A DNA stretch of 64,000 nt, taken from the NCBI GenBank assembly GCA_963764165.1, contig CAVXRD010000002.1, positions 416,001 through 480,000 of the forward strand, written 5' to 3'. Below the pieces are notes generated by a model. The model saw only the letters and a program-made list of their open reading frames with translations. It was not told the origin of the DNA and made no database searches. This DNA is from an uncultured Verrucomicrobiae bacterium. Lineage in GTDB: Bacteria; Verrucomicrobiota; Verrucomicrobiia; Limisphaerales; Palsa-1400. The position numbers and the translations under genes were made by a program. Each line of letters opens with the position of its first letter. The stretch's first letter is position 1. Below are positions 14,723 through 59,168 of the stretch, in pieces.

Positions 14723-14783
14723 AACTCGAGCCGGCATCGCGGCTCGAATCGGCTCGGCCGCTCTCGTCTTCCACCCATTTCCA

Positions 14784-37250: not shown

Positions 37251-37318
37251 TGGAGCCAACTGCCGGATTTGGGCTGCCCTGCCTGATTCGGATACGAGGA
37301 TGATCGCCGATTCCCTCG
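37251..37318 (-). other. att-like site 1: tRNA(Thr)-type 3'-end fragment plus conserved element end
   Basis: Reverse complement CAAATCCGGCAGTTGGCTCCA (T-arm 3' half, acceptor stem, CCA); flank GGCTGC...GATTC..TACGAGG...TTCCCTC is shared with 52561-52607. Confidence 0.75.
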
Positions 37319-37432
37319 TAAAGCTGAGGGAACAAGATTGAAACAGTCAGCCACGGAGTGCGGGTTAAATCCAACGGACTTTCCGCAGCGACCCGGACAC
37401 CAAGGAAGTCGCAAGTTATGCCGCCAAGCGCA

Positions 37433-40400
37433 TCAGCGCGGGGCCTGCGGCGCCACAACCCGATAATAGCGGTAGCCGCGGTTGGTTGAGGCTGGGTCGC
37501 TGAAGTAGCGCAGGCTCGCCGGCGACACGTTGGTGCTTATCGAACTCCAACTGGCCAAATTCGTGGTGGCTTGCAAAATGTATGTGCTATCGGCGATTCC
37601 AGAGAATTCCAACGTGAATACGCCATTCACGAAATGCGCTCCCGTGATTTGATTGAAATTCGGCGCCAGGGTCGTAAAGCTTACGGCATTCCCAGTGGCG
37701 ACACCGCCGGCGTTGGACGCTACGATGGCGTAGAAGTAGGGTGTCCCCACCTGCAAGCCCGCCAGCACGTTGCTGATATTGTAGCCGCCGGTTTCCGCCG
37801 GAAGCGTTGCGACCATATTGGTGTTTCCGAAGTTTGTCGTCGTGCCCCACACAAAGCTGACCGTCGTCGGGGCGTTTTGCGGATTCACGACGCCGTTGAG
37901 GGTGGCGGAGTTTGTCGTCACGCTGCTGGCGGGCAGCGTCGTCACGCTGGGCGGGAAATTATTGACAGTGACCTCGATGTTGTTGGTGGCGGCCACATAA
38001 TCGTTCGTGTCAAATGGCGTGTAGGTGACGCTTTGCAGGCTGGTGCCGAGCGGGGGCGTTGTCTCGGGCGCGGTGAAGGCAAAGTTACCCGGCGGGGTGG
38101 CGGCGCCGCCGCTCAAAGTTGCCGCCGCCAATGTTTGTCCAAGAACAATCGGGCTGGCAGTCGGCCACGTGATGACAGTCGAATTGGTTCGGTCTATCGT
38201 TATCCAACCGCTTGCGCCGGTGAGTGTGTAGTTGCTTGAGGCGCTCCCGGTCAAATCCAGCGGCGAAAAATTGACGATGGCTTCCATGCCCGCGTTTGTG
38301 CTCGCGAGGATGGCATAACCGTCCAGCGCGAGGTTAGTGGAATCGAGATCGTTGGTGATGGACAAAATGGAGGCCATGGCGGTGGCCGTTCCGTCGAATG
38401 ACCGCTCGCCTGTCAATATAACAGGCAGCGGCGTCACAATGACGTCGCCGCTAAAGCCCGCAAGCGTGTAATTGCTGACGGACGCGCCCCCGAGCGCGAT
38501 GGTGCCCAATGAGGTCATGGCATTTGTGCCCACGCTTGCGCTGGAAAGACCGTTGCTTCCGGATGCCACGATGATGTCATCGCCAGCGACGGCGTTCGAC
38601 ACGGACAAAATCCCATAGATGGCGTTGGTTGTCGCATCGTAATTGCGGGTGCCGGTCAGAACCACGGGCAGCGGATTGACCGTCAGGGCGCCGGCGTTGT
38701 AGGTGATGGCATAGTTGGCCGGGTTGAAGGTGCCACCGGTTGCGGCGCTCGGCGTGATGGCGTAAGGCGAACCAGAAACCGGCGCGTTGGCCGCTCCACC
38801 GTTGCCACCGATGGCGAGGGTGACGGACCCAATCGTTTCGCCATATTGCAATCCGACGCTGGTGAATTGCGCTCCTCCGCCGCCGAGGGTTTGCCCATAG
38901 GTTTTGCTTAGCGAATTGGCGGTGATGGAAAGAGGCGCCGGCGTAACCTGAATGTCAACGAAGTTCGTTGCTCCCGTGTAATCGTTTGTGTCCAGCGGTG
39001 TGAAGACGGTGGTCAGCGAATAAGTGCCCACGTTCAACATGGCGCCATTGGTCGGCAAATAAACGAAGCTGCCTTGAATATTGGCGGTGGCTATCAACTG
39101 GGTGGACAGGCTCAACGGTGTGCCATAGATGATTGGTGCCGGGTTGGACCAGGTCACGACCGACGGGGCGGTTTGGACTACGATGGTCACGCTGGCGCTC
39201 AGACTGGAATAGGCGGCGGGGTAGAAAGGCGTGAAGGTCACCAATAGCGTATTTGTCCCGACCGGCAGCACTGTCCCGAGCGAGGGTGTATACATAAACG
39301 CGCCCGGCCCGGACGCGGTTGCGTTTAATTGGGCCTCCGTCAATGCCGTGCCGTAGACAATGGCGGCTGGATTGGTCCATGTGATCGCATTGGCCGACAG
39401 CAGGGCCTGGCGACTGTCAATCATACATCCGTCCGCGGAAGTGACCTGGCAGCGCACCACCGCGCCATTATAAGCCAGCGCCGCGGACCCGACCGTGACG
39501 GTCGCCGAATTGGCCCCGGTAAATCCAGGCACGCCCGCCAGCGATGTAAACGCATTCGTATTGCCGGCCGGGGCGATCTGCCAGGCGTAGGTCAAGCCGT
39601 CGCCGGCCGCGGAAATGGAGAACGCGTTGGATCCCGGGGTGGGATAATACAAGTCCTGCGGCTGAGCTGCGATGAGAAGTGAAGCTGATTTTGTTCCCGT
39701 AAATTCATATGGCCCCAAATCAATCTGGCCGCCGACTTCGCGCGCATTTCCGGCGAGATCAGAATTTAAGCCGGCATCGAAATTGGTGCTGCCGAGACCA
39801 ATCAACGGCGAGCATGGCGACAATTGGAAATCACCGCTGACCGACGGCGCTTGCGCCGGGTCAATCGGAGTGACGAAGGCCGGAGCCAGATTGGTCACCT
39901 CAGTGCCGCTGTAGGTGGCAAGGCTCTCGATCGAAGCATACGCCAGAGTCACGCTGCCCTGCTGCACCGTCAGTTGCTGCAACTCCACCGAGGCGCCGTT
40001 CGGATTGGCGGATCGGTTGTTCCAAAGAATGCTGTTTTCAATCGCGAGTGTTGATCCCAGCGCGTTGATGCCACCGAAGAATACGCTGCCAGCCGTGACA
40101 TCTTCGTTGGCGGTCACAGTCGAGTTGACCAACGTGCCGGTGCTGTTGATGATGGCCAATCCGCCGGCGTTGCCCGCCACGAGGGCGTCGGCCAGAATGA
40201 TTTCGCTGTTGGTGGCATACAACGCGCCTTCAAGATTTCCTTGGAATGCGCAATTGGTGAACGCCCCGCCGCCGTCCATCAATTCAGCGCCGATGCCCTC
40301 GTTGGCGATGAATTGGCAATTGCGAATCACGGGGCTGGCGTTGGAAATCATCAAACCCGTTGACGAACCGGTTACGACAAAGCCATCGAGGACAGTGTCC

Positions 40401-43400
40401 GAACCCGCTGTCGATTGAACCGTTACCGCCGCCGCACCGCCGCTGTTCGTGAGCATCGTCGGATTGGCGATCCAATTGCGGGAGGCCAAAGTGCCGCCGG
40501 AAACGAACCCACCGTAAACCGCGACATGAGCCGGAATGGAATAACCGGCACTCGCTGTATAAGTCCCCTGCGCCACCCAGATGCTCACGTTGTCGCATGC
40601 GTTTTGCGCGGCAGTCGCAAGGGCCGGCGCCAGGTCATTATAGGCGGTAGCCCATGTGAGGCCGTTGCCGCCAGTCGCCGCCGAGGCGTCCACATACAAA
40701 ACCGACGGTGGGAACGTAATGGTCGCGACGGCAGTGGTGTAGGAAATCCCGGAGTAAACGGCGTGGACCTGGAGAGCGGTGAGATTTGTGCTCAGATTGG
40801 ACAAAGTGAGCGTGGAAATCCCGTTGTTGGAAGCCAGGCCCGCGGAAGAGCCATAAAGCCACGAGCCAGAGGCGAAATTCGTCCAACCGCCGCCAAAACT
40901 GTATTGCCATCCAATCGCGTACGACGGCAAGCCGCTGGCTTGGAATGCGGTGCTCCCACCCGCGCACGCGATCACTGACAACGGCGCCGGCCCGACGGAA
41001 ATCGCGCCCGCCCCGGTGCTTGCGGATTCATAGGCGCCGAGGTCCACCACGGAATGTTGAACGCGCGCGTTGCCAGCCAAATCCGTTTCGCCGCTAAAGA
41101 CGAATCCGTTGCTGCCAGCGTTGATGGCAGGTGAAATTGAGGACAGCGCAAAGCCGCTGCTGAAAAGCGGATCGAAATTCAAAACGTTCGCGCCGCCCAG
41201 AGCTGTGTCGAACTCCACAATATCGTTGGTCGCGCTCACGCTTCCTTGCGCGACGTAAATGTTGCCGCTCTGCGTGTTTGAGGCTGACAGACTGGCGGCG
41301 TTGTTGCCCCAGAGAATGGAATTCAAGATCGTCGCCGAGCCGCCCGACTGCCCGATGCCGCCGCCATAAACCCCGGCAAGGTTGGAAGCCACGGTGCAAT
41401 TGACAAGAGCCACGGTTGCTCCCGCGTTCTGAATTGCGCCGCCTTCAATGCTCGCGTTATTCAAGGCGAACAAAGAATTGTAAACCGTGAGAGCACCGCC
41501 GCCCAAATACAACGCCCCTCCGTTGGCGCCCGAATTATTGGAGAAAGTGCAAGACTGCACGGCGAGTGTCGAATTCGTGGCGTTGATTGCGGCTCCATTG
41601 CCGGCGGAAAGATTGTTGGTGAAGACGCAATTGCTAATCACCAAGCCCGACGAATTATGAACGCTGATGGCGGACAAGCCGGCGCCTGTCAGCGCCAGGT
41701 TCTGCAAGGCAGGAGTCGCGTTGGAAACAAGAATGCCGCTGCCATATTTCCCCTGGACCACGAGCCCGTCGAGAACGGTATCGTTGGTCGCTCCCGAGCC
41801 GAAGACCACAATGTTGGAGACTGCTCCATTCAAGATCACAGGATTGGCCTGCCAATTTCGCGTGCCGCCGCCGGAAGGATACCCTCCGTAAACCGTGACG
41901 TGGGGGGAGACGAGAAAGTTTGACGTCGTGGTGTAAGTGCCTTTCGCCACGAAAATGTCACCACCGCCGCATCCGTTGAGTTCAACTGCAACCAGCGCGG
42001 AACCGAGGTCGCGATAAGCAGTGGCCCAAGAACTTCCATTGCCGCCAGCCGCCGCGTTTTGATCCACATAAATGTTGAGTGGCAGCAACACCGTCAAAAC
42101 CGCCGCCGGTGTCGTGTAAGATTGGTCGACATACACCGCCTGCACTTCCATGCCATTGAGATTGGTGGGTATGCCGCCCAAGCCGAGGGTGGAAGTGCCA
42201 TTGATGCTGGTGACCGTGACATTGGCTCCGTCAAGGAACGTGCCGTTCGTCAAATTGATCCAGCCCTGGCCAAGGTTGTATTGCCACTGGAACTCATAGA
42301 GAGCCAATCCGGTGGCTTGGAACGAGGCAGTGCCCCCCGGGCAGGCGGTGTAGGAAGAAGGCGCCGATCCATGCACTGGGGTGCCCGAACCATTATAGGC
42401 GGATTCGTAAGCGCCGATATCGACGATTCCTTGTTGAACGCGCGGGTTTCCAGCGATGTCCGTCTCGCCTGCCAAACTGTAGGCATTGTTGCCGTCATTG
42501 ATGGCGGGGGAATTTGAAGACAGCGTGAAATTGGTGTTCAACAGCGGATTGACATTCACGTAAGCGCCGCCCGATCCGTTTTGAACGATGTTATTGGCGG
42601 CGGTGGGTGTTCCACCAGAGGCGATTATTTCCCCGGAAGGCGCATAATTGCCCCATAAAATGGAGTTCTCGATGGTCAATTGGGCCGCGTTGGTGTGCCC
42701 GATGGCACCGCCGCCGGGGCCTCCATAGACTGTCGTGTTGCTGGCTATGGTGCAATTAACGATCGTCAGCGGCGAACCAGCCTGGATCGTGGCTGACCCG
42801 TAGTCCACCATGTTGCTGACAAACAGGCAGTCGCGGAATGTGGCGGGGTAGTTGACAAGGGCCGCCGATCCGCCGTCGTAGGCAACGTTGGCGGAAAAGG
42901 AGCAGCCTTCAAAACTCCAGGAGCCGGTGGCGTTGGCGCCGGTCTGGGATACGCTAAGGCCGGCTCCAAATGCCGTTTCCGAGTACTCGCCATTGCCCCT
43001 GAACTGGCAGTTCAGCACGGTCACAGTGCCATCGTGGCCGGCCATGCCGGTATCACAACCTATCAAGGCGCAATTGCTAAGCACAATTCCACTGGCAGGG
43101 AATTCGGCTTCGATTCCAACGGTCGAGCCTACGACCGTGAGATTTTGCAGCGCAGGAGTTGCGTTGGAAGTATAGATTCCATATTGGCCGCCGTAAATGG
43201 AGAAGCCATCCACCACGGTGTTTGTTCCAGTCGTTCCAACGATACTCATCACGTAGTAGGGGCTGCCAGCGCCTATTTCCAATATGGTTTGATTCGTGGT
43301 CCAGTTGCGCTTTGCCATGGTGCTTCCGCCGGGTGGAAAGCCGCCGAAGAGAACTGTGCCGTCAGTAACGTAATACGGGCCACTCTCGGATGTGTAGGTT

Positions 43401-46400
43401 CCCGCCGCGACTTCGATGATGCTCGCGCAACTGCCCGCCATGTTCGCAGTGAGGGCAGCGGACAATTGAGTGAAAGCATTGGACCACGAGGTGCCGCTGC
43501 CATTGCCGGTGGCTGTGGCATCGACGTAGATGATCGGCGTCGGAACGACCGTCAAGGTGGCCGCCGGTGTGGTATAGGTGGTGCCGCCATAGACGCACCG
43601 AACTTGCAGGTTGTTGAGATTGGTGCCGACGTATTCCAGAACCAAAGTTGAAACCCCGCCATTCGTTTGGGTGACGACCGTCGCCCCCATCCAGGAGCCG
43701 TTGGTGAAATTAGTCCAGGTCGTCCCGAAACTATATTGCCACTGGAAGTTATACGAAGCCAAGCCGGTCGCTTGGAAGGTCGCTTCATATCCAAGGCAGG
43801 CAGCCACCGGCTGCGGTGGCGTGCCGTAAGTTGGGCCGCTGCCGGTCCAGGAGGCTGCTTCATAAGCTCCCACATCCACCGTTCCGCCTTGAATGCGCGC
43901 ATTGCCGGCCAGATCCGTTTCACCCGTCACCGTGTAGGCATTGTTCCCGGCGTTGATTGCCGGGGAGTCGGCTGACAACGTGTAATCGCCGTTTAACATC
44001 GGGTTGACATTCATAATGTCATTCTCAAGCAGGGCCTGGGTGTAAGGCTGGGTTAATTGCGATCCGACATTGCCCCAGATGATGCAGTTGGCCAGCGTTG
44101 AAACCGAACGCGTGTAGTTGGCAATGCCTCCTGACAGGTTGCTCACAATCGTGCAATTGACAGCCTCGATGGGCGTATCGTTCATGATGGCTCCCGGCCC
44201 CCCGGAATTCGACGCCATCAAGCAATCCCGGAAAAGCGTTGGAGTTCCAGACACGTAGATGGGAGCCACATCGGGGCTTGAATTTCCAATGAAAGCGCAG
44301 GCGTCAAAAGTTCCTCCCGTGGCAATGTTGACCGGGTCTGAATTATTGATAAACCGGCAATTTGTCGCCGACAGAAAAGCACCAGTGCCCGCCGTCCCAT
44401 ACACACCCGCGATGCAATTGCTGATGGCGGAATTGAGCATGGTGACATTGCCTCCCTCGCATTGAATGGCAGCACCCGCGCCGACGCCGTTGAAGTAGGT
44501 GTTGCTGATGGTAACGGACGAGAACGGAAACATGGTCAGGCTCGACGCCAGGAACGCGCAGTTGCGAATGATGGGTGATCCTCCGTTCTGCTCGATCACC
44601 AGCGACGACGCATTGCCGAAGGTCAAGCCGTCAAGGATGGTATGCTGGCCAAACGTCTCGGCCGTGGTCTGACTCACCGGGGTGCCCGCCGCCGTGGTAA
44701 TTGTAACCGTGTGCGTGGCGGGGTTGCGCGTGGCAGACGTGCCGCCGTTGGTGAACCCGCCGTCGATTTCCACCCCGGGCGGAATGGTCACTCCCGAGAG
44801 CGAATAAGTTCCCGTGGCTACATATATGGCGTCGCAGGAACCGGACGCGCCGATGGCCGTGGCAAGACTGTTGTAGGCGTTCGACCAGGTCGTTCCATTG
44901 TTGGCGCCCTTCGCATTGGCATCGACGTACACGATGGGCTGCGGATTCACGGTGATCGTAATCGAGGGCGAAGTAAAGCTGACCGACCCGGAGGTGATGA
45001 ATCGATAAATATAGCCGCTGAAAGTGGACTGGACGTTTTCAAGGGTCAACGACGAGCCGTTGGCTGTCGTCGTAATGACATCGTTCGCGTCATTGGTCAC
45101 GGTGCCGAATCCCGTCCCCCTGTTCACCTGCCAGGTGACGGACAAGGCGCCCCCGTTTTGATTATAAACGTACATCGGCAGGCCGCCGAAGCGGCAAACC
45201 GAACTGTTGGCCAGCGCATAGTTCAAATACGCGGGCAGGACCGCCCCGCTGCCGAATGCATATGCCCCGATATCCACCACGCCGTTGAAAAGGCGCGCAT
45301 GGCCCAGCAAATCCACCGTCGCCGCGGAAATGCCGTTGGTCTGGCCGGCGCCCACCGCGGGCGAGACCGACGTCAATTGATAATTTCCAACCGCCGGATT
45401 GACGAACACCGGGTCGTAGGAAAGCAGCCCCGGTCCCGAATTCGCATAGTAGAACAGCCCCTGGATGATGCTGTTGGCGAGGGCGGCTGAGCCGGCGAGA
45501 TTCATCTGCGCCTGCTCCACCGTTCGGTCGCTCAACGTTGTCGTGTTTCCCCACAGGATCGTATTAACGATGCTGGCCGAGCCGCTGCCGATCCAGAGGC
45601 CGCCGGTCAGGCCGCTGGCGCTATTGTTGACAACAGTGTCATTAAGAAGATTCACCGCCGACGCGCTGCCATAAATGGCGGACGACGCAGCCGTGCCTAC
45701 GTTTCCGACGACCACGGAATCATTGAGCGAGAGCACGCTGCCGCCATACGCGGACAGAGCACTGAAGCCGCTGTTGTTGGAAATAATGCAGTCCTGCACA
45801 ATCAAAGCGGACTGGCTGGCGACAATCGGCTGGCTGTTCGGCACGGTGTTGCTCGAAATCACGCAGTTGGTCAGGCCCGCCGCCGAATTGGTGAGTGTCA
45901 AGCCGGCCACTCCCCGGCCATTGAGAAACTGGCAGTTGAACAACTGAAGATTCGTCGACGCCTGCACCGCCATCGACGAATTGGTATTGTTGGTGAAGGT
46001 GCAGTTATAGAAGTAGGCTCCGGTGGAATTGCTAATCGATACGGCGAAGTTGTTGCTCACGAACGTGCAGTTTTGAATGATCGGCGCCGCGTTGGAAACA
46101 ATCAGGGCGGGAATGGAAGTGGAAACACCGTTGGCGGTGAGCTGGAATCCATCGAGGACGCCGCTCCCGACAAATGGTTGATTCAGCAAGTTGGTGGCCG
46201 TGACCATGATGCCCTTGGTCGCCGCCGAATTGGTGGTGCTGGGCGCGAGAATGGAGATGTTGGTCAGGAAATTACGCTGGCTCAAGTTGGTTTCCGTCCC
46301 ATTGAATCCCCCGTAAATAGCCACTCCGTCTATCAATTCGACGCCGCTGCCGCATTGGTAAGTTCCTTTCGCGACCCATACTGCGGTGCAAGTGTTGGTT

Positions 46401-49400
46401 ATGCTGGCCAATGCGCTCGGAAGGTTTTTGAAGGCCGTCGCCCAGGTTTTCCCTGTGCCGCCAGCCGCCGCGGCGTTGACATAAACGACGCTGGGCGCAG
46501 TGAAGGTCACAGGCTGTGGATCGAGGGCCACGGCGCCGTTCACCACGGCCTGGAACTCGTAACCGAGAAAGGCATCAGGATTCAGGATGGTCAGCGTGTT
46601 CGTGGGGCCCGATTGTGTGATTTGGATATACCCACTATTTGTCAGCGGGATGGAGACGCTGTTGCTGACGGCATACCATTGATAGGTGTAATTGGACCCC
46701 GTCGCCGCCACGACGGACATGGCCGCAGCCGGATCCGCCACCCCGCAGGTTGAGGCGGTGGTCGATGAGTTGACAAGATTGATCACTCCGGTGCCCGCCC
46801 CTTGGAATTCATAGCAACCAATGTCCGGCAAACCGCCGTTGTATTGACGCGCGTTGTCAAGCAAGTCCAGCTCAGGGCTCGCCTCGTGCGGCGCGCTCGC
46901 GGAACCGGCGTTGATGGCCGGCGACGACGACGTCAATTGATAATTGCCGCCTGCATCGTTGGCGAACAGCGGGGCATAGGAAATGTTGTTGTTCCCGACA
47001 TATTTGGAAAGCCCTTGAATGATTGAATTGGAAACGACGGCGCCGAATTGATCAATTTGCATGGACTCCGTTGTGACCCCGGTCGTGACACTCACGGAAT
47101 TTCCCCAAAAGATCGAGTTCCAAATTGTGATATTGGTGCCAAGGGTGGCGTCCAACCCGCCGGTGGCCTGGTAAGACATGTTGTTGGCGACGGTGCTGTT
47201 GACAATGACAAGATTTGTTCCGTCAAATTGGATGGTTCCTTTTCCGGTCTGGGTGGTGTTGCTGGCGAACAGACAATTGTCAATGACGGCGGTATTCGTC
47301 TCAATGGCAAGCGCAGACGGGCCATTGGTCGTTCTGTTGCCGGTGAAACTGCATCGCACCCACGATGACGGCGCGCCAGTCGAGAGCCGGACCGCGCCGC
47401 AGAGCGTTCCAATATTATTTTCAAAGGCGCAGTCGACGGCGGTAATGCGGGCTCCGTTGGTGCCCGTTATGGCCCCGGCGTTGGTTTTCTCGGTATTGCC
47501 GTAGAAGAGACAGCTTTGCAACGTCACCGCGCCCGCGGTCACCAACGCGGATTTCGGATAGTTAAGAAACTGGCAGTTGCTGAAGGTCACACCCGCGCCG
47601 CCGGCAATGGACGCGCCGTAAGTGTTGCCGGCAACGCTGGACAACACACAATTCTGGACCGTCGGCGACCCGGCGGCAATCAGCACGGCGGGGCCGGCAA
47701 TGGTTTGTTGCAAATAGAATCCATCCACCAACGTGCCGTTCGTTCCGGCGGCGCTTGTGAATTGGAGGGTCGAGCCGTAGCCGGGTTGCAAAATGGTCGG
47801 ATGGGCCTGCCAATTCCGTTGCGACAGGTTGGTTTCAGTTCCGCTAAAGCCGCCGTAGATAAGTTCATTCGGCGACGGTATGAAGGCCCCGTTATTGTAC
47901 GTTCCAGTCGCCACCCAAATCTGTCCGCATCCACCCAAGGACGCAATGGCCACGTTCAAGTCCGTGAACGCATTCGCCCAACTGGTGCCGTCATTGTTTC
48001 CGATGGCTGCGGCGTTCACGTAAACCAGCGCGTTGTATTGGGAGATTGAAGCCGGGGCGGTGACGTACTCCGGCGAAGTGGCGCTGCCAGACTGCCCGCC
48101 GAGATTCCACAGCCGAAATTGGTAGCCGCTCATCGAGAGGGGCGGATCCACGATCACCAACTCAGACCCGGATATCGCAACGTCCTGGTCCGGGAACAAT
48201 TTGGAAACTCCCGTCGGCGAATCGGACGCCGAAGTGTAGGAAGTGGTGCCGTAAGTAACTTTCCCGGTTACGGCTTTGATGATCAAATCCGTGAACCCAT
48301 TGCCATCGAGCGCGTCGACCTGCCAGCGCGCGGATGAATAATTCGGCACGCTCGGCGAGGCGGTGAAAATCGTGGTGGGCATGCCGCCGGTCCCGCATTC
48401 CGTCGTTGTGGCAATGGAGGCATTAAATATGACGGAGGGAGCCGTACCCTGGTACTCATACGCGCCAATGTCAATCACGCCACCAACGATGCGGGGATTT
48501 CCGGCTGCGTCAGTCGAGGTGAACAAGCTGGAGGAATAATTGCTGGCGCCAGCGTTGATCGCCAGCGAGTTGCCGACACCGGAATTTTCGGCGAACGAGT
48601 CGATTTGCAGGGCTTGAATCGGCAGCAACCCGTTGACAAGCGAATACTTGGCGAACTGGATCTGCAATTGCGGGCTGACGTCCAGCGAATTGACGCTCGG
48701 CAGCAAAGTCAGGCCTTGCAAGATGCAGTTCTGAATTTGCGACGCTTGGTTGACTTGTTGGTATTCCAGCGTTCCCGCCGTCACCGATGTGTTGGAATAA
48801 ACAATCGAATTCAGCAACTGGCACGTACCGTTGCCCACGTAGCAAATACCGCCGCCCAGGTTGAGTCCTCGGTTGCCATAGATTGTGCAATTCTGAACGG
48901 ACAGGGAAGCCTGCTGGCTGCCAATTCCTCCCCCAAATCCTCCGCCCGGCGTTATGCTGGTGTTCTGGTAAAATTCCGATCCCCAAATTTGAGATGAATT
49001 ATTGCTGCCCGCGAGATAGCAGCCACCTGTGAGCGTCCCTAGGTTGAAGTCAAAACGACAGTTCTGAACAATGGTAGAACTCCCCGAACTGTACAACGCG
49101 CTGATGCTGGAATTGTTGCTCGTAAAGTTGCAGCCGGAAACGGTGACGGTGGAACCCGAGGTATGCAACGCTCCCTGCGGCGCGTAATTGGCCATGAAGA
49201 AGCAGTTTTCGACCACCGCCGGCCCTGCCGCCGACACGGGGCCTCCCGAGGTATAACTTGCGTTGGAGAACGTCAGCCCTTCAACAACCGAATTGCCGCC
49301 CAGCACCGTCAGCGCATTGGTTTGGTTGTAAGGCTTGATGATGGTCGGATGCTGCGAGGGGTTGCTCTGCGAGGTGGATGTCTCGTTGCCCGCGAATCCG

Positions 49401-52144
49401 CCGTAAATGGAGACTCCAGCCGGTACCGTAAAGTTGCCTGTATACGTTCCCGCCGCCACCCAAACGGAGTCCCCGGGCACCAGCAACGGGCTGATCGAGA
49501 GTGTCGTCGCCGCATTGGCCCAACTGCTGCCGTCGTGGGTGCCACCGGACACGTTACCGTTGACATAGTAAGTGAAGCCGGGAGGATCTTCGCCGGTGTT
49601 CTGGGTCGCGCCCATGTCGCGCCCCGAATAGGAGAAGCCCAGCAAGTCATAGTTCGCCAAAGGCCCCGTCACGGTGTAGGCAAGATTTGAGTTGCCCTTC
49701 CCCAGGCCAGGCGAATTTGGGAAACTTCCCAAAAGCGAGTCCAGGTGCGGATCAATGCTGATATTGCCGTAAGCCGGGTTAAGCATCGTTTCACGATTTC
49801 CTTCGCCGACATTGGGATAACCTGTCCTGCCTTGGAGGGACGGAGGCGAATACCCATTCCAAGTATAGATGGCGCCAACCGGGACAGGAAAATACAAGGT
49901 ATCCGAGCCGCCATAATATCCGGTGGCGTAGCTCGCATTGTTGTCGCCGGCGAGGGGCGTGCTCGAAGGATTGCCGGAAGAATCCACAAATTGCCCGGTG
50001 CCGATTTCCAACCGGCTCAAGCTCTGCACGTCGGAATTGCGGATATCGCAGACCGCCACCCACTGCCAGTGCGAATTTCCCGCCGCATTATAACTCGTCG
50101 CTTCGTTGGCGTTCAAGTCGCTGTATTTGGCCGTGAAAACGTCGATTCCGGCGGCCCCGTTGGAGACCGTGTTGCCCCACAGAATGGAATTGCCGATGAC
50201 CACATTGGCGCCCGTTTCATTATCCACGGCAGCGGCCTGGGTGGCGTCCGCGGTATTGTTGCTGAGGATTGTGCAGTTGATAATGCGCGTCTCCTCCTGG
50301 GCAAAATTAACAATGGCGCTGGCGCCGTAGGCGCAGTTGTTGCTGAAGAAGCCGTCGTTGAACAAAACCGGGGCGCCCATCCCCGAGAAGGCCACCGCCC
50401 CGCCCGTGCTCACCGCGTTGTTGCCCTGAAAAAGGCAATTCTCAATAAATTCATTGTTGTAACAACTCGCAAAAGCCCCGCCCATGCCGAACGTCGTATT
50501 GTTCAGGAATTGGCAATTGTAAAAGACCGTCGGGACGGAGTAATTGCAGAACATCGATTGATTCGCCGCCCAGAGACCCGATGCCGATTGCTCATAGGTG
50601 GGGCCGGGGGGGGCAAAGATGCCCGCGATGATCGAGCTCAGTTCGTAGAGAAGCTCAATCGGATTGGTTCGATCGCTGACCAGCGTGAGGACATCGCTAA
50701 CAGCCACCACCGTCGGATTGTTGGGGCTTACGCCAAGGTATTCAGCGAGAGCGACGGCTCCCTGGCCAGCACTCACCACGGCTGAGGCCACCGCAAAGAC
50801 GGTGCCAAGCGATCCCTCGGAGGCCTCTGCAATGACGCTGGCCAGATCGATGCCGTCATCTTCTGCCGCAGTCGCCGCCAGGCTGTCTGCAAGCGCCACC
50901 CCATAGTTTCCCAATTTGCTCCCGACCACCACCGCCAAATGAATCCGGAGTGAAAGAGGCGGATTCTCGACCAGCGCCACCAATTTGGCAAACCGGCTTT
51001 GGTCCTCCGCAATCTGCGTGTCCAATCCCTCGTTCAATTGCACGATGTAAGAGGCCGCGTTGCCGATGGCGTTGGTGTTCCATGGAAAATCGATGTTGTT
51101 ATATCCCGGCAAACTGATGCATTGGACGGCTCCGCCCGACCGGCCCCCGACGTTTTGCGCAAAGTTACAGCCGTTGAACACGCTGTTTTGATTGCATCCC
51201 CAGAACGCGCCTCCCGAATAGTCCGCCTCGTTCAGCCAGAAAGACGAGTCGATGACGAGCATTTGCGCGCCATAACAAGCCACCGCTCCACCCATCCCCA
51301 CAGCCCTGTCGTTGATGAACAAGCAGTTCTGAACCATGATATCGCCGCTATCATCCTCGCTGGTGATGTCTGGAAAAGACGGATTTTGCCAGTAGTATGA
51401 GACATATTCGGGCCTCTGGTTGTCCACCACCGCCAAACCGCCTCCCGCCACCCGCGTGTCCAGCGCAGTCAGGGGAAAGCCCGGCCCGGTGGAATTTTGA
51501 CTGCTGGGATCCGGCATGGTCATGAGTGGAATTGTCCCCGGATCCACCCCGCTTCCACTCACGTAATTCGTGCCTGGATCCGCGTCTCCATTGGCGATGA
51601 TCAATCCGTCCAGCACAATTTCCGCGCTTGCCCCGTGGCCGCTGGCCGTCACAACATTGTAAGAATTATCCTGAAACCCAGGGTCGGTCGGATCGAACAA
51701 AAGGGAAGCAGGATTAGCCAGCAATGTTTCCGCTGTCACCGCATTGGTGGCGGGCGTCCCAATATCACCGCTCAAGACCGTTTGATAAATGGGCAAGCCG
51801 TTGGTGCCGAACCGTCTCTGTTGGGGATACGATTCCGTGCCCGCAAAGCCACCCCGCACCACCATTCGCGTCGTGAGGGCAAACGAAACAGTTCTGTCAG
51901 TGCCAGAGGTGGGCTTGTATGTTCCCGCCGCGACCCAATATTCCGTTTGGTAAGGATTCCCGCCCCCGTTGGTAATTGCATTGCGCAATTCGTGATAGGC
52001 CGTGGCCCAACTATTCCCGTCCTGTTGGGAATTCGCGCTGCCTTGGTTCACGTAAATGATCCGGTCTTGCGCGCGCGCAAGCTCGGGCACGACAACGCTC
52101 AGCAATAACGCTCCGACGGCTAAAATGCGAATTGGGGTTTTCAT
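37433..52144 (-). CDS. Giant (~4900 aa) secreted repeat protein: eight beta-helix/choice-of-anchor-Q modules with Ig-like linkers, MBG/YDG-like stalk, C-terminal tail; probable adhesin or surface protein
   Basis: ATG 52144 MKTPIRIL signal peptide; eight YV(N/D)...G.(S/T)W..A motifs, most modules ending GN.R....D(I/L/V)G.YE; tail LQATTNLASW...YRYYRV. Confidence 0.9.
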   Translation of the reverse strand: MKTPIRILAVGALLLSVVVPELARAQDRIIYVNQGSANSQQDGNSWATAYHELRNAITNGGGNPYQTEYWVAAGTYKPTSGTDRTVSFALTTRMVVRGGFAGTESYPQQRRFGTNGLPIYQTVLSGDIGTPATNAVTAETLLANPASLLFDPTDPGFQDNSYNVVTASGHGASAEIVLDGLIIANGDADPGTNYVSGSGVDPGTIPLMTMPDPSSQNSTGPGFPLTALDTRVAGGGLAVVDNQRPEYVSYYWQNPSFPDITSEDDSGDIMVQNCLFINDRAVGMGGAVACYGAQMLVIDSSFWLNEADYSGGAFWGCNQNSVFNGCNFAQNVGGRSGGAVQCISLPGYNNIDFPWNTNAIGNAASYIVQLNEGLDTQIAEDQSRFAKLVALVENPPLSLRIHLAVVVGSKLGNYGVALADSLAATAAEDDGIDLASVIAEASEGSLGTVFAVASAVVSAGQGAVALAEYLGVSPNNPTVVAVSDVLTLVSDRTNPIELLYELSSIIAGIFAPPGPTYEQSASGLWAANQSMFCNYSVPTVFYNCQFLNNTTFGMGGAFASCYNNEFIENCLFQGNNAVSTGGAVAFSGMGAPVLFNDGFFSNNCAYGASAIVNFAQEETRIINCTILSNNTADATQAAAVDNETGANVVIGNSILWGNTVSNGAAGIDVFTAKYSDLNANEATSYNAAGNSHWQWVAVCDIRNSDVQSLSRLEIGTGQFVDSSGNPSSTPLAGDNNASYATGYYGGSDTLYFPVPVGAIYTWNGYSPPSLQGRTGYPNVGEGNRETMLNPAYGNISIDPHLDSLLGSFPNSPGLGKGNSNLAYTVTGPLANYDLLGFSYSGRDMGATQNTGEDPPGFTYYVNGNVSGGTHDGSSWANAATTLSISPLLVPGDSVWVAAGTYTGNFTVPAGVSIYGGFAGNETSTSQSNPSQHPTIIKPYNQTNALTVLGGNSVVEGLTFSNASYTSGGPVSAAGPAVVENCFFMANYAPQGALHTSGSTVTVSGCNFTSNNSSISALYSSGSSTIVQNCRFDFNLGTLTGGCYLAGSNNSSQIWGSEFYQNTSITPGGGFGGGIGSQQASLSVQNCTIYGNRGLNLGGGICYVGNGTCQLLNSIVYSNTSVTAGTLEYQQVNQASQIQNCILQGLTLLPSVNSLDVSPQLQIQFAKYSLVNGLLPIQALQIDSFAENSGVGNSLAINAGASNYSSSLFTSTDAAGNPRIVGGVIDIGAYEYQGTAPSVIFNASIATTTECGTGGMPTTIFTASPSVPNYSSARWQVDALDGNGFTDLIIKAVTGKVTYGTTSYTSASDSPTGVSKLFPDQDVAISGSELVIVDPPLSMSGYQFRLWNLGGQSGSATSPEYVTAPASISQYNALVYVNAAAIGNNDGTSWANAFTDLNVAIASLGGCGQIWVATGTYNNGAFIPSPNELIYGGFSGTETNLSQRNWQAHPTILQPGYGSTLQFTSAAGTNGTLVDGFYLQQTIAGPAVLIAAGSPTVQNCVLSSVAGNTYGASIAGGAGVTFSNCQFLNYPKSALVTAGAVTLQSCLFYGNTEKTNAGAITGTNGARITAVDCAFENNIGTLCGAVRLSTGAPSSWVRCSFTGNRTTNGPSALAIETNTAVIDNCLFASNTTQTGKGTIQFDGTNLVIVNSTVANNMSYQATGGLDATLGTNITIWNSIFWGNSVSVTTGVTTESMQIDQFGAVVSNSIIQGLSKYVGNNNISYAPLFANDAGGNYQLTSSSPAINAGSASAPHEASPELDLLDNARQYNGGLPDIGCYEFQGAGTGVINLVNSSTTASTCGVADPAAAMSVVAATGSNYTYQWYAVSNSVSIPLTNSGYIQITQSGPTNTLTILNPDAFLGYEFQAVVNGAVALDPQPVTFTAPSVVYVNAAAAGGTGKTWATAFKNLPSALASITNTCTAVWVAKGTYQCGSGVELIDGVAIYGGFNGTETNLSQRNFLTNISILAPSTTNSAATKGIMVTATNLLNQPFVGSGVLDGFQLTANGVSTSIPALIVSNAAPIIQNCTFVSNNFAVSISNSTGAYFYNCTFTNNTNSSMAVQASTNLQLFNCQFLNGRGVAGLTLTNSAAGLTNCVISSNTVPNSQPIVASQSALIVQDCIISNNSGFSALSAYGGSVLSLNDSVVVGNVGTAASSAIYGSASAVNLLNDTVVNNSASGLTGGLWIGSGSASIVNTILWGNTTTLSDRTVEQAQMNLAGSAALANSIIQGLFYYANSGPGLLSYDPVFVNPAVGNYQLTSVSPAVGAGQTNGISAATVDLLGHARLFNGVVDIGAYAFGSGAVLPAYLNYALANSSVCRFGGLPMYVYNQNGGALSVTWQVNRGTGFGTVTNDANDVITTTANGSSLTLENVQSTFSGYIYRFITSGSVSFTSPSITITVNPQPIVYVDANAKGANNGTTWSNAYNSLATAIGASGSCDAIYVATGTYSLSGVTIPPGVEIDGGFTNGGTSATRNPATHTVTITTAAGTPVSQTTAETFGQHTILDGLTFGNASSLVIEQNGGSPIIRNCAFLASSLTMFPFSSVTISNTYFNGVGAGAAIQCEGGNVTMLNSAISNCIAGVYGTAGTGAFLSATNCRFINNSDPVNIATGGTFDACAFIGNSSPDVAPIYVSGTPTLFRDCLMASNSGGPGAIMNDTPIEAVNCTIVSNLSGGIANYTRSVSTLANCIIWGNVGSQLTQPYTQALLENDIMNVNPMLNGDYTLSADSPAINAGNNAYTVTGETDLAGNARIQGGTVDVGAYEAASWTGSGPTYGTPPQPVAACLGYEATFQATGLASYNFQWQYSFGTTWTNFTNGSWMGATVVTQTNGGVSTLVLEYVGTNLNNLQVRCVYGGTTYTTPAATLTVVPTPIIYVDATATGNGSGTSWSNAFTQLSAALTANMAGSCASIIEVAAGTYTSESGPYYVTDGTVLFGGFPPGGSTMAKRNWTTNQTILEIGAGSPYYVMSIVGTTGTNTVVDGFSIYGGQYGIYTSNATPALQNLTVVGSTVGIEAEFPASGIVLSNCALIGCDTGMAGHDGTVTVLNCQFRGNGEYSETAFGAGLSVSQTGANATGSWSFEGCSFSANVAYDGGSAALVNYPATFRDCLFVSNMVDYGSATIQAGSPLTIVNCTIASNTTVYGGPGGGAIGHTNAAQLTIENSILWGNYAPSGEIIASGGTPTAANNIVQNGSGGAYVNVNPLLNTNFTLSSNSPAINDGNNAYSLAGETDIAGNPRVQQGIVDIGAYESAYNGSGTPVHGSAPSSYTACPGGTASFQATGLALYEFQWQYNLGQGWINLTNGTFLDGANVTVTSINGTSTLGLGGIPTNLNGMEVQAVYVDQSYTTPAAVLTVLLPLNIYVDQNAAAGGNGSSWATAYRDLGSALVAVELNGCGGGDIFVAKGTYTTTSNFLVSPHVTVYGGYPSGGGTRNWQANPVILNGAVSNIVVFGSGATNDTVLDGLVVQGKYGSGILVSNATPALQNLALTGAGLSAISVHNSSGLVISNCVFTNNLSAGNGAAINATNSTLAVQSCTFSNNSGANGGALYLGGGALTVYNSLFALNNASIEGGAIQNAGATVALVNCTVASNLAGVYGGGIGQSGGSATILNSILWGNNAASLSASNTQSGNIYVAQGSVSATNDIVEFDTALGGANVLNFDPLFSSGFALSSISPAINAGSNGFVFSGETDLAGNARVQHSVVDLGAYESASTGAGAISVGPAPLSVIACAGGSTAFQASGLPSYAIGWQYSFGGGWTNFASGSWLYGSSAGLASNNGISTLTLSNLSTNLTALQVHAVYSGISYTTAVATITFPPSVLYVDASAATGGNGLTWATAYNDLAPALATAAQNACDNVSIWVAQGTYTASAGYSIPAHVAVYGGFVSGGTLASRNWIANPTMLTNSGGAAAVTVQSTAGSDTVLDGFVVTGSSTGLMISNASPVIRNCQFIANEGIGAELMDGGGAFTNCAFQGNLEGALYATNSEIILADALVAGNAGGLAIINSTGTLVNSTVTANEDVTAGSVFFGGINALGSTLAIENSILWNNRSANPNGASVELQQLTVQQGSVTLAYASIESLATYSGTEVTNLAPAFVTPIDPAQAPSVSGDFQLSPCSPLIGLGSTNFDAGLNSDLAGNAREVGGQIDLGPYEFTGTKSASLLIAAQPQDLYYPTPGSNAFSISAAGDGLTYAWQIAPAGNTNAFTSLAGVPGFTGANSATVTVGSAALAYNGAVVRCQVTSADGCMIDSRQALLSANAITWTNPAAIVYGTALTEAQLNATASGPGAFMYTPSLGTVLPVGTNTLLVTFTPFYPAAYSSLSASVTIVVQTAPSVVTWSNPAPIIYGTPLSLSTQLIATANIQGSFVYLPTNGAMLNVGTYSLTTVFTPLDTNDYTGATNFVDIQVTPAPLSITANSLSKTYGQTLGGGGAQFTSVGLQYGETIGSVTLAIGGNGGAANAPVSGSPYAITPSAATGGTFNPANYAITYNAGALTVNPLPVVLTGTRNYDATTNAIYGILSVSNAVAGDDIIVASGSNGLSSASVGTNAMTSLGTIALGGASVSNYTLAGFSGDVIVTPLPVILTGERSFDGTATAMASILSITNDLDSTNLALDGYAILASTNAGMEAIVNFSPLDLTGSASSNYTLTGASGWITIDRTNSTVITWPTASPIVLGQTLAAATLSGGAATPPGNFAFTAPETTPPLGTSLQSVTYTPFDTNDYVAATNNIEVTVNNFPPSVTTLPASSVTTNSATLNGVVNPQNAPTTVSFVWGTTTNFGNTNMVATLPAETGGYNISNVLAGLQVGTPYFYAIVASNAGGVATGNAVSFTTLAPNFNQITGAHFVNGVFTLEFSGIADSTYILQATTNLASWSSISTNVSPASLRYFSDPASTNRGYRYYRVVAPQAPR

Positions 52145-52539
52145 AAATGGAAATGAAATGAACCTTTCACTTTTGCGCGGCTCTGGTTTTAGGGTTAAAG
52201 ACTCCACAGATCAGCGGAACTTTTTATAATATCCGGACAAAGTCGCCCATCCCCGAATATTCGTGAGGCTCATGGAATCTTTACAACGCCCGGGATCCGT
52301 TTGAGTGGAGGAAACGAATTTGGCAAGAGGAGTCAATCGGCAAACCAAAAAGCTTACGACCAATATCCGTCAACGGTCATTCAACTATAATCGATGCATG
52401 CTGCGCTGGTCGCCAGAGCCCCTGGCCCGGACAATCCACGCGATTGCGTCGGTGTGGATTTGAGCGTGCCGTTGGTGCCCCATTTTAGTGTCCACCGCCG
52501 CCATCACCTCTTCAAACTCCTGTGTCAATACATTATGAA

Positions 52540-52692
52540 TGGAGCCAGTTGACGGATTTGGGCTGCGTTCACGATTCAGCTACGAGGAGAATATTGATTC
52601 TTCCCTCCGAGAACCAGCACCATTTGGCTTTACCCCTCCACTACTCTTTCATTACTCCGTCGATGCTTTCACTGACAGTTTCACCGACAGTC
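52540..52692 (-). other. att-like site 2 (core 52540-52560) with arm-type repeats ACTGACAG/ACCGACAG at ~52671-52692
   Basis: Reverse complement CAAATCCGTCAACTGGCTCCA; direct repeat of site 1 and inverted repeat of site 3. Confidence 0.8.
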
Positions 52693-52717
52693 GCCGCCGA
52701 ATTCAAAGGGATGATCT

Positions 52718-53107
52718 CTACGCCCAGATACGGCGGATGGCATAAGCGTCGAAGGCGAAGTCGGCACTAACAATCGGAAAGTCCTCGACCTGGCATTGGG
52801 CGGCCATCAGGCGGTCAAATGGGTCTCGATGATGAACGGGCATCGCCACGACCGCAGCCACATGCGGCAACTCAATGGCAAGCACCTCAATCTGGTTTAA
52901 TTGAAGTTGGCGGGGTATGAACTGGTCGAAGGGTTGAGCCAGCGTGAGTTTGCCCAGGCTGACCTTGATCGCTAACTCCCACAAACTGGCCATGCTCAAC
53001 AATCGGCGGTTGTCGGGATCCTGAATCAACGATTGCGCCCGGCTGCTGAGGCGGGGATCATTGGCGATGAACCAAAGAAACGCGTGCGTGTCCAGCAACA
53101 GGTTCAC
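52718..53107 (-). CDS. vapC: VapC-family PIN toxin
   Basis: LLDTHAFLW, SMASLWELAIK, HHRDPFDRL, SAD..F. Confidence 0.93.
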   Translation of the reverse strand: MNLLLDTHAFLWFIANDPRLSSRAQSLIQDPDNRRLLSMASLWELAIKVSLGKLTLAQPFDQFIPRQLQLNQIEVLAIELPHVAAVVAMPVHHRDPFDRLMAAQCQVEDFPIVSADFAFDAYAIRRIWA

Positions 53108-53310
53108 TTCATGTAAGGCTCAAAGTCCGCCAACGGTGCGTCGAAGTCTTCCGCCATGCTGACCAACCCTCGGGCGCTGCCTGGCTCGATGCGAGCCAGC
53201 GTCTTGACGGATGGCTCCCTGGCCAGCAACTCCACAAGCTGCAACAACGCCGTCTGCGCCGAATCGGGCAGCGTCTTAGCCTTCGAGTAAATTAATTCCG
53301 CTGTACTCAT
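53104..53310 (-). CDS. Antitoxin (DUF2281/VapB-like)
   Basis: 68 aa, C-terminal GSARG...MAEDFDAPLADFEPYM; 4-bp overlap with vapC. Confidence 0.85.
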   Translation of the reverse strand: MSTAELIYSKAKTLPDSAQTALLQLVELLAREPSVKTLARIEPGSARGLVSMAEDFDAPLADFEPYMK

Positions 53311-53474
53311 GGAGCTAATCTAATTGCTCCCAGGCTGGCATGCAAGCTCCGGGACCGTGGCCGGTTGAGTGGAAGGGGAGCGCGTCGGCGGGTCGCCACT
53401 TCGCCACAATTCGGAATTACTCGCCGACTGCTCGCTAACGTCTCGCCGCCAATTTCATTCACGCTGGCGGGTGA

Positions 53475-54172
53475 GTGGAAAACATTGAGACACAAAGCAG
53501 CGAGGTAAAACGAGCTGAACCGGAAAGCGAGCCATTTAGCTCGCCGGTTCTGCGGTCGGACGTAGCTAAAACTGGCATAGTGGAAAGACCGGGGGCGGAG
53601 CGGCGCGGAGCGCCGCCCGCCCCCGGCCTTCCTTGTCTATTGAGTAACAACTCAGACAAGGAGGTCGTCGAACCCTTGGGGGAAAATGCGGAAGAGGTGC
53701 CGAAATTCAACGTCCTGACAGGTGGACACAAGAGAACAGCCTTTGTTCTGGCGGAAGAAATCATAGGCCTTGCCAACGAATTCGGATTGGAGCGATTGGG
53801 GTTCTTCACGCTGACGTTTTCTGACCGCGTGCAAGAAATGAAGGAAGCCAATCGCCGGTTCAACAATCTGAACAGGCGCGTATTAAAGGCACGTTACCAG
53901 CGGGCAATTGTCGTCACGGAGCGTCAGAAGTTGGGCCGTGTCCATTTTCATCTGCTCGTGGTGTTGCCCGTGGATATTCGCACGGGCGTCGATATTGAGG
54001 CGTTCAAGCGTGGGCACTATCAAACCGCAGGGAAGGCATTGCGCTCAGAGTGGGCCTTCTGGCGGAAGACGGCACCGATGTACGGCTTTGGCCGTCATGA
54101 ACTGCTACCCGTCAAGTCGAACAAGGAAGGGATTGCCCGCTACGTCGGCAAGTATGTTTCCAAGAATATCCG
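53475..54172 (+). pseudogene. HUH rolling-circle replication initiator, truncated just after motif III
   Basis: Motif I FFTLTF, motif II HFHLLV, motif III YVGKYVSK; sequence after ~54172 reads better in a different frame (ORF runs on to 54440). Confidence 0.75.
53589..53653 (+). other. Putative double-strand origin inside the rep 5' region
   Basis: GC hairpin CCGGGGGCGG-AGCGGCGCGGAGCGCCGC-CCGCCCCCGG followed by CCTTCCTTGTCTATTGAGTAACAACTC (CTTG nick-like motif). Confidence 0.5.
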
Positions 54173-54538
54173 GCAAGCCGAGTTCTCCTGTGCCGTCCAC
54201 GCAACAGCCCCGATTGGTCCGTTATCCAGGAATTTGAGGAAGGCTCCGCCTACGCCAGAAATCACGGACGCACGGAAGTTCTGGTGCAGGGCCAAAATGT
54301 TCGGGACGTGGTCATGGAGTATGTCGCTCAAGCGAATCACACGCTCCGCTTTTCGGAGCGCAATCTTGTGGCTAACGCGCAGAAAATGGTGTGGCGCCAA
54401 TTCCCGGAACACAACCCCGGCAAGGTCGTGGAAGCCTTGATGGAGCACTGCGATAAGGCGGTCACGCACAATCGCTCGATTGGCGAGAGCCAGTCGGAGG
54501 CCCAAGACAACCGTCGATCTCGCGGCATGAGAGTATGA
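54173..54538 (+). pseudogene. 3' remnant of a hypothetical island gene
   Basis: Open frame RVLLCRPRNSPDWSVIQEFEEG...SRGMRV* whose stop overlaps the next ATG (ATGA); 5' end replaced by rep. Confidence 0.5.
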
Positions 54539-54888
54539 GCATCCCGAAGGACAGGCCGTTAAGTTCGGAGCGGGAAAGGTTCCTGAATCTACGGCACCTT
54601 CCTGCGCAATTAAGCGCAAGTGAAGCGTCGCATCTGCTGGGCTGCGCTCCGCACGACGTTCCCGTCTTGGTTGCCCGGGGCTTGCTTAAGCCACTGGGCA
54701 ATCCGACTCCCAATGCCGTTAAGTACTTCGCCCGCGTCACGCTGGAGGAATTGAGCAATGATGCGAAATGGGTCTTTCGCATCAGGGCCGCCATTAACGA
54801 GTTCTGGCGGATGAAAAACGCCGGGCGCGCTGCCGTTGAATTTCAAATGTCCGAGCAGACTCAAGACGCGGCCCAGCGTGTCGCCTGA
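54535..54888 (+). CDS. Excisionase-like HTH DNA-binding protein
   Basis: LSASEASHLLG...VPVLVARGLLKPLG (HTH_17/Xis-like pattern); lies just before att site 3 and the integrase. Confidence 0.6.
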   Translation: MSIPKDRPLSSERERFLNLRHLPAQLSASEASHLLGCAPHDVPVLVARGLLKPLGNPTPNAVKYFARVTLEELSNDAKWVFRIRAAINEFWRMKNAGRAAVEFQMSEQTQDAAQRVA

Positions 54889-54939
54889 TTTTATTTCATA
54901 TTGACTAGCGCGGCTTTGATTCTCTTTAGCCCCCTTTGC

Positions 54940-55160
54940 GCGGACACCAACGGACACCAAAACGGACACCAAACGTGTTAAAAAAGGTATAGGCTGGTAA
55001 ACGGAATTATCCTTGATTACCGAGGGAAAACGGGTATATTTTACCTCGTAAACGCGGTGAAAAATGCCCAAATCCGGCAACTGGCTCCATTCCTAACCGC
55101 GTGTGCGGCAATGGTTTAGAACCGCCGGACTGGCCACTGTCAGTGAAAGTGTCAGTAAAT
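54940..55160 (+). other. att-like site 3 (core 55069-55089) with arm repeats CGGACACCA x3 on the left and TGTCAGT x2 on the right
   Basis: CAAATCCGGCAACTGGCTCCA 183 bp upstream of the integrase ATG; arms at 54941-54972 and 55138-55156. Confidence 0.85.
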
Positions 55161-55271
55161 GGGGGTGCGGCGCAACTGCTCGCCCACAACTCCGACACTA
55201 CTCCGCTGAAACTCGCCCACTGCTCGCTAACGCGATGCGAGTGGACTGGTTCACAATTCAGTGAATCAGTT

Positions 55272-59087: not shown

Positions 59088-59113
59088 GCCAGCCTCCCCG
59101 ACGCAATCGCGGC

Positions 59114-59168
59114 AATAAAAAACCCGCCACATTTGAGCTTGGCTTGCGCCAGAGGCTTGGCAGGTATG
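59114..59168 (-). ncRNA. Putative abiF-motif RNA antitoxin (AbiFr-like)
   Basis: ACCUGCCA-AGCCUC-UGGC(GCAA)GCCA-AGCUCAAAUG-UGGCGGGU-UUUUUAUU between a sigma70-like promoter and the abi start codon. Confidence 0.7.

Follow-up and report, generated by a model that had tools for sequence, protein, structure and literature searches.

A giant beta-helix gene in a probable CIME-like relic of a tRNA-Thr att array in a Verrucomicrobiae bacterium

Introduction

Cis-mobilisable elements (CIMEs) are described, in passages of PMC5704250 and PMC7563491, as elements that have lost their integration and transfer genes, have kept their attachment (att) sites and arise in tandem with integrative and mobilisable elements (IMEs); arrays of the order CIME-IME-IME-target are tabulated in the latter. 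Here, we analyse a giant gene that stands alone between two tRNA-derived direct repeats, A and B, in a 64,000-nt stretch of DNA from an uncultured Verrucomicrobiae bacterium (the window; positions 416,001 to 480,000 of contig CAVXRD010000002.1, corresponding to G000:C2:416001-480000, with G000 denoting the source genome). Like the CIMEs of these passages, A-B has att sites and cargo, lacks integration and transfer genes, and is separated from the 3' end of a tRNA gene by younger IME-type elements. It differs from the classical CIMEs listed in PMC7563491 (1.2-13 kb) in its size of 15.3 kb, in having one giant gene as sole cargo, in its host, a member of the Verrucomicrobiota, in the integrase family involved and in its two ends of different classes; its mobilisation in cis is putative. 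We consider it likely that A-B is the oldest unit of its array, an integrase-less, CIME-like relic that was probably fused from two old elements and in which the gene was kept.

Two further systems are closely related. Islander, in the passages of PMC4383910, recognises the ends of islands by a tRNA gene and displaced 3' fragments whose identity begins in the T-loop region, a signature shared by the array of A-B. As presented there, it demands one integrase per unit and a fragment in tRNA orientation, so that A-B alone and an inverted third copy of the repeat, C, would be rejected. Tandem arrays of SXT/R391 elements yield deletions and hybrids by recombination (passages of PMC5812530), and this kind of tandem deletion or fusion is the route that we propose for the unmatched ends of A-B. 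In contrast to the SXT/R391 hybrids of these passages, which stay functional integrative and conjugative elements, the neighbours here differ in their arm words, and a fusion between them would have been immobilised.

The boundaries of A-B are explained as tRNA copies with arm words rather than as attC hairpins, and its neighbours are whole elements with integrases of their own, which probably sets the locus apart from an integron. In integron cassette arrays, single-gene units without recombinase and with attC hairpins stand in a row. No IntI or attI was identified at the locus, and no dedicated attC or IntI search was made. A literature search, which left subscription papers mostly outside, found no published work on this integrase family or on the carriage of giant genes in this group.

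Results

The two repeats are 27-mers that start 15,289 bp apart, at 37251 (A) and 52540 (B), and differ at three positions, as had been noted by a model from the letters of the window (the sequence-only reading). In reverse complement, the first 21 nt of each 27-mer correspond to the 3' end of tRNA-Thr(CGT); they have the same orientation as the tRNA and match its last 21 nt with one mismatch (B) and two mismatches (A). The chance expectation for a 21-mer with at most two mismatches is 0.006 per whole genome. A tRNA search of the 64-kb window found no tRNA gene; tRNA-Thr(CGT) itself (C2:510414-510489, minus strand, at about window coordinate 94,414) is located outside the window, about 42 kb beyond B, where it adjoins an intact tyrosine integrase. 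C, which the sequence-only reading did not note, is a perfect copy of the same 3' end and inverted relative to A, B and the tRNA. The number of core mismatches climbs with distance from the tRNA, from 0 (C) over 1 (B) to 2 (A), which fits the expectation for tandem accretion. The earlier proposal of a tandem array of att sites derived from tRNA-Thr is borne out by these cores and by the arms described below, and so is the suspicion that the unit is old.

The A variant and the B variant of the core were each seen in one of 96 junction cores, with search patterns that permitted both, and neither was found in the other three tRNA-Thr genes of G000. This argues that the changes are private mutations, and not, as had been considered, the mark of different isoacceptors. 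The patchy similarity of A and B over approximately 50 nt beyond the core, also noted before, is real and corresponds to a proximal right arm common to the att sites of relatives; the zone reaches z 0.0 to the tRNA class and is therefore non-tRNA sequence. A crossover in the anticodon loop, considered because of a TCGTA motif, is disfavoured, as the spacing of this motif to the core varies between 18 and 21 nt and the TCGTA zone has no score to the sequence upstream in the tRNA. There is no arm on the outer side of A; between positions 1 and 37250 of the window, the best further core candidate had six mismatches or more and no further arm reached 8 bits, and the three weak matches of an Rfam scan all fell outside the A-B interval. 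A has the weakest arm signal, and a mis-assembly might underlie the inversion close by at C, which would suit an explanation of A as a chance likeness or an assembly product in ordinary chromosome. Such an origin is extremely improbable given a match of 19 of 21 nt to the cognate tRNA end, in the same orientation at a distance of 57 kb, and an in-register remnant of a right arm next to it.

In order to place the ends of A-B, we used the arms of related att sites. Searches for the core in its att form gave 14 occurrences, spread over 9 of 30 other genomes of the family, and further ones in 75 metagenome stretches; its pattern had no match in viral contigs. Three right-arm and three left-arm classes were defined from 96 distinct junctions, and the arm models (14, 12, 21 and 7, 8, 8 sequences) were built without the four G000 sites. 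The class of the integrase tracks the class of the left arm in 17 of 18 junctions. Since the integrases that target tRNA-Thr are 77-81% identical over residues 50-270, in their catalytic regions, and 31-49% identical over the first 45, it may be their N-terminus that reads the arm word. In the array of A-B, the CGGACACC words stand at +48 and +60 after the tRNA and at -149, -139 and -127 before C, and the TGTCRGTRA words at +48 and +60 after C and at -150 and -138 before B; each element uses a single word that points the same way at its two ends. The same holds for L115 and the first unit of L142 and, as read from the printed letters, for the two complete units in the tRNA-Cys array of G000, where the words are others. 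The latter array (G000:C2:3257783-3278079) comprises three units with integrases of the same family and an own arm word per unit. Accretion was seen directly in two related metagenome contigs that have their distal units in common, one of them carrying an extra element where the other has the tRNA. The distal unit of both contigs, with an F1a left end, an F2 right end, an integrase relic of 31 aa and kdp cargo, resembles A-B in layout and in its unmatched ends.

The ends of A-B do not follow this rule. Inside B, the motifs that the sequence-only reading took for an arm (GGTGCCC/AGTGTCC, 52474-52493) are present and belong to a left arm of class F1b, whose words have two mismatches, an inserted base and a spacing of 13 instead of the usual 12. 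Among hand-picked F1b-like left arms, the words were perfect in 6 of 7 that are followed by an integrase and had 1-4 mismatches in the five without integrase, one row with only 254 nt visible having been set aside. There is no integrase behind the inner arm of B, and the likeness of this side to relatives ends after 70 nt (blastn). Inside A, the proximal 54 nt score z 7.6 to F2-right, a value reached by 0 of 400 background windows, compared to z 3.4 to F1a-right and z 1.3 to F1b-right, the partner expected for B. We are confident that the right end at A is not F1b and that its word doublet is gone; its assignment to an F2-like class has moderate support. One arm-like word is left (37391-37402), which agrees at 6 of 9 positions with the F2 word on the tRNA-sense strand or can be read as an F1 word in reversed orientation; a second word is unrecognisable, and the distal arm zone stays at background level whichever class it is compared with (z at most 0.8). 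The CGGACACCA motif proposed earlier as an arm (37394-37402) does exist at the right offset, but it is single and has the wrong direction for the word of B, and arms matching each other inside both ends are not what we find: the left one is F1b and the right one F2-like and decayed.

As stated by the sequence-only reading, the unit lacks an integrase: none of the 22 PF00589 matches of the genome is located between A and B. Transfer genes are likewise absent between A and B, and promoter and terminator scans of both ends gave results at chance level. As in a CIME, A-B is bounded by attL/attR-type sites, here of different classes. An intact integrase (Int1) and a TrwC relaxase are present in the same array. 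It does not possess the tyrosine integrase of its own that would define an autonomous tRNA island, nor the intact matching arm words at both ends that would define a minimal cassette mobilised in trans. The two ends match element classes that carry an integrase elsewhere, and no remnant of a backbone is left.

These data bear on the possibility that Int1 or another member of its family excises A-B in trans as a circle and that giant genes are exchanged at the site. The unit is tightly packed, its cores are identical over 14 nt of the presumed exchange region, and Int1 is intact at a distance of about 41 kb, with arms of its own that carry the GGACACC word seen inside B. In addition, G259:C1 (see below) is another att-bracketed unit without an integrase, in which the cores are identical and the right-arm doublet is perfect, albeit in a genome (96% complete) in which no Int1-family match was found. 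At A-B, however, a GGACACC word of the same direction is absent from A, the reversed word there is found in only 1 of 23 junctions, namely A itself, the distal arm zone of A is at background, the words of B are decayed, and the core mutations are private to A and B. We therefore regard such a live cassette as unlikely. The giant gene has the look of cargo left stranded by an old element, not that of a cassette under continuing exchange.

The giant gene is the sole gene in A-B, is unbroken and comprises 14,712 nt, flanked within the unit by 155 nt and 395 nt of non-coding DNA. It codes for a protein of 4,903 aa, in agreement with the single gene of about 4900 aa seen before. The protein has a signal-peptide-like start, YDG domains and a C-terminal domain that we take to be sorting-like, and each of its seven modules combines a right-handed beta-helix with a choice-of-anchor Q domain and Ig-like strands (NF041518, 195.7 bits with a cut-off of 25; PF13229, 169.6 bits with a cut-off of 25.9). 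One module was predicted to fold as a right-handed parallel beta-helix (predicted local distance difference test score 77), and its best Foldseek match was the pectate lyase Pel9A (PDB 1ru4; E 5e-7). The module is thus of the parallel beta-helix type common to Pel9A-like proteins (PF13229, NF041518), but it is only 15% identical to Pel9A with a template modelling score of 0.42, and the giant protein has seven such modules in one chain. A search of the PDB by sequence profile gave no match, and a comparison with the Atlas pointed, as a lead only, to beta-helix clusters at 0.88-0.90. The catalytic residue of Pel9A is presumably a lysine; as lysine makes up 0.5% of the residues of the giant protein, lyase activity is not indicated. 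Judging from domain content and predicted fold, the product is in all likelihood a rod that is secreted, anchored at the surface and either glycan-binding or adhesive, and the label 'adhesin' is to be read as a deduction from the domains.

Relatives of the N-terminal 881 aa were found in 0 of 4 genomes of the genus, 5 of 30 of the family, 9 of 300 of the order and 2 of 400 of the class, counts that were obtained with differing E cut-offs and, for genus and family, include incomplete genomes. The closest genomic homologues (52-55% identical) belong to another family, a protein collection yielded sixty relatives with lengths of 2,700-8,600 aa, and G000 has three further paralogues. The homologues P0003 and P0004 are 53-54% identical. 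Several homologues have a kinase/regulator pair just upstream, whereas A-B is without such a pair. Synteny gave no further anchor: the flank of A is unconserved in 40 relatives except for short domain matches, and the neighbours of tRNA-Thr(CGT) and of a larB-like gene differ in the genomes of the genus.

A blind search for tRNA-end-like direct repeats (5.5-23.6 kb on each side) revealed significant brackets in 3 of 12 members with both flanks, A-B itself being counted by construction; members in G012, G017, G020, G022, G041, G197, G234, G266 and G315:C718 were left out because their contigs are too short. One bracketed member is found in G000: this paralogue occupies an F2 island at tRNA-Thr(TGT), and its gene ends about 250 nt before the F2 right-arm words on contig C5, the join of C2 and C5 being our deduction. 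This island (G000:C2:3564248-3615160 plus C5:1-2364) has F2 arms, a broken integrase, a MobA/MobL-like relaxase (labelled by eye) and a kinase; its paralogue exceeds 13,000 codons and runs off the contig, and C5 seems to hold its end and attR. The other is a unit of about 41 kb (G259:C1:4956-45857; L088, L089) between identical 3' copies of tRNA-Leu(TAA) type. It contains a paralogue of 11,454 codons, LexA-like, Smr and kinase genes and two regulator genes, and gave no integrase match inside; about 450 nt separate the stop of the paralogue from a perfect right doublet of class F1a. Of the two integrase-less units, this one is a better candidate than A-B for a passenger that is still excisable; the flank that would reveal its empty site was not found in G315. 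Since 3 of the 12 members are bracketed, elements of this type do carry such giant genes, without this being the rule.

The giant gene could also have entered later by another route, replacing the interior of a dead att-bounded remnant. Debris next to tRNA genes is a common landing zone for incoming DNA, nine of the 12 family members are not bracketed by att sites, and there is no integrase remnant in A-B. On the other hand, the G000 paralogue matches the giant gene in position and orientation within another F2 right end, the G259 paralogue lies just inside an F1a right end, and the two short non-coding ends of A-B showed neither an insertion-sequence gene nor an additional repeat. On balance, we judge a later entry to be improbable, to the same degree as the live cassette.

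Further members of the family lie close to tRNA sequences. In G041:C158, outside the 12-member set, a tRNA-Gly 3' copy is found about 350 nt before the start. Among the giant open reading frames (ORFs) of G000, two of the four family members and four of the 30 others have a tRNA or a copy of a tRNA end at most 1 kb away, numbers that are too few to test; the four include the outer neighbour of A and an internal match. A paralogue of 11,324 codons (G000:C1:939962-973933) starts 7 kb after tRNA-Ala(CGC) and ends 270 nt from the 3' end of tRNA-Pro(GGG), with no tRNA fragment found. The 3' end of tRNA-Gly(CCC) has eight dispersed copies in G000, far from tRNA-Gly(CCC) (Table 1), and a cluster of nine tRNA genes of atypical form, among them a second tRNA-Thr(CGT) and one with the anticodon TTA, is located at G000:C2:1559019-1561230.

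From the tRNA outward, the array consists of element 1 (F1a), element 2 (F2) and A-B (Table 1). Int1, a full-length tyrosine integrase (359 aa, PF00589), adjoins the 3' end of tRNA-Thr(CGT) and is followed by the TrwC relaxase and cargo including an N-ATPase operon. Just outside the window (L001:6476-13827), element 1 shows this operon together with phosphoketolase, PPK2, a heavy-metal P-type ATPase and IS66. Int1 with its left arm (G000:C2:509160-510506) has 93% DNA identity in G003:C60 and G016:C7, and the Int1 protein is 97% identical in G041 (C161). As these genomes represent other genera or species, the integration module of element 1 may have spread recently. Int2 of element 2, beyond C, is 74.5% identical to Int1, with 76.8% DNA identity over 693 nt, and broken; its remainder was not found. 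Element 2 also holds a Rep gene and a PIN/DUF2281 pair and terminates at B, and the Rep gene and positions 53388-53520 resemble the inner right end of F2 elements (90-91% over 132 nt).

The segment at about 54500-56082 of the window, with a small ORF, the F1a right arm, C, the F2 left arm and the truncated Int2, is inverted relative to the array, either by a true rearrangement or by mis-assembly; unless it is an assembly error, it would further impede excision of elements 1 and 2. The neighbours that the larB-like gene and tRNA-Thr(CGT) have in genomes of the genus are in G000 two genes 3 kb apart at C2:1.67 Mb, which suggests a reciprocal rearrangement beside tRNA-Thr(CGT) (C2:510489-511000 versus C2:1675083-1678133). 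Elsewhere in the window, a weak abiF RNA match (59122-59164; 34.8 bits with a gathering score of 37) lies directly upstream of an Abi-like (Abi_2) gene (58194-59132), and a DUF2760 gene is followed by two Hsp70-like paralogues, the second with DUF3731 (12224-17573).

Table 1 Features of A-B and its neighbourhood in window coordinates; contig coordinates of G000 in the last line.
Feature	Position	Strand	Remarks
Site A core	37251..37271	-	Two mismatches to the last 21 nt of tRNA-Thr(CGT); outermost of the array's att sites found
Proximal part of decayed right arm	37272..37325	-	Closest class F2-right
Single arm-like word	37391..37402	-	Offset as for the start of right-arm words (-149 to -151); taken from the printed sequence
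Giant gene	37433..52144	-	ATG at 52144, stop at 37433; N-terminal module plus seven modules of ~440-520 aa
Upstream region, 326 nt	52145..52470	-	No integrase or response-regulator remnant (tblastn best E 0.24)
Decayed left arm, class F1b	52471..52539	-	Two GGACACC-type words; 36.6 bits, E 1e-8
Site B core	52540..52560	-	tRNA-Thr(CGT) 3' copy, 1 mismatch; hybrid junction of element 2 and giant-gene unit
Right arm of element 2, class F2	52563..52716	-	Two TGTCRGTGA words at -150, -138; 90.6 bits
PIN-domain toxin and DUF2281 antitoxin-like pair, element 2	52718..53310	-	Domain matches
Rolling-circle-type Rep	53475..54440	+	PF23343
Right arm of element 1, class F1a	54855..55068	+	Three CGGACACC words; 220 bits; inverted relative to the array
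Site C core	55069..55089	+	Matches the tRNA-Thr(CGT) 3' end perfectly; opposite in direction to A, B and the tRNA
Left arm of element 2, class F2	55090..55171	+	88.6 bits
Int2, tyrosine integrase of element 2	55272..56117	+	Ends at ~residue 272; C-terminal catalytic residues absent
tRNA-Gly(CCC) 3' copies	C1:921621; C2:326592, 863460, 903918, 1349765, 1354661; C3:251042; C4:45742

Discussion

The reading that we favour, a fused relic with a retained gene, would have come about as follows. Elements that share one tyrosine-integrase family insert at the 3' end of the tRNA, and each leaves behind a 21-nt copy of it. The right end of an F2-type element may have brought in the giant gene as cargo, and a deletion would then have joined this element to an F1b neighbour; recombination between integrase genes of about 77% identity is one possible route. 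This deletion would have taken the integrase, the backbone and the usual sensor/regulator pair, and the ends would have decayed afterwards while selection retained the gene. A-B would now be mostly fixed. It would perhaps leave only within a larger excision, and its cores, poor in arms as they are, may act as secondary targets.

Several points weigh against this account. Both the arrival as cargo and the present immobility are steps that we infer. Nine of the 12 members searched, including the two closest homologues examined, have no significant bracket (best E 0.34). The right arm at A scores 4.1 bits with a hidden Markov model, its assignment to F2 rests on 54 nt, and the F1a arm of C reaches z 7.0 to F2-right in the same test, so that A may, less probably, be F1a. 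No integrase remnant was detected at the proposed fusion point, and the composition of A-B (GC, and GC3 of 0.70) is the same as that of its neighbours. Finally, the cores of A and B are identical over 14 nt of the presumed strand-exchange stretch, so the cores by themselves would permit recombination between them.

As we read it, A-B shows, in a little-studied group, how elements accrete in tandem at a tRNA gene and decay there, a process that is already known. It also brings to light an integrase family with a testable code, in which each element has its own arm word at both ends, and this code tells live units from fused relics by sequence alone. In a wider view, tRNA-targeting integrases with swappable arm-binding ends would move giant beta-helix genes of 15-40 kb across the order as integrase-free passengers bounded by att sites, among them A-B and G259:C1, which would still be excisable with a helper integrase and would allow cells to acquire and exchange giant surface proteins at tRNA arrays; we regard this picture as unlikely. 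If integrase-less units proved excisable, they would be unusually large passengers with a single cargo. The case of A-B offers a possible route by which giant surface-protein genes, patchily distributed across the order, may travel between families.

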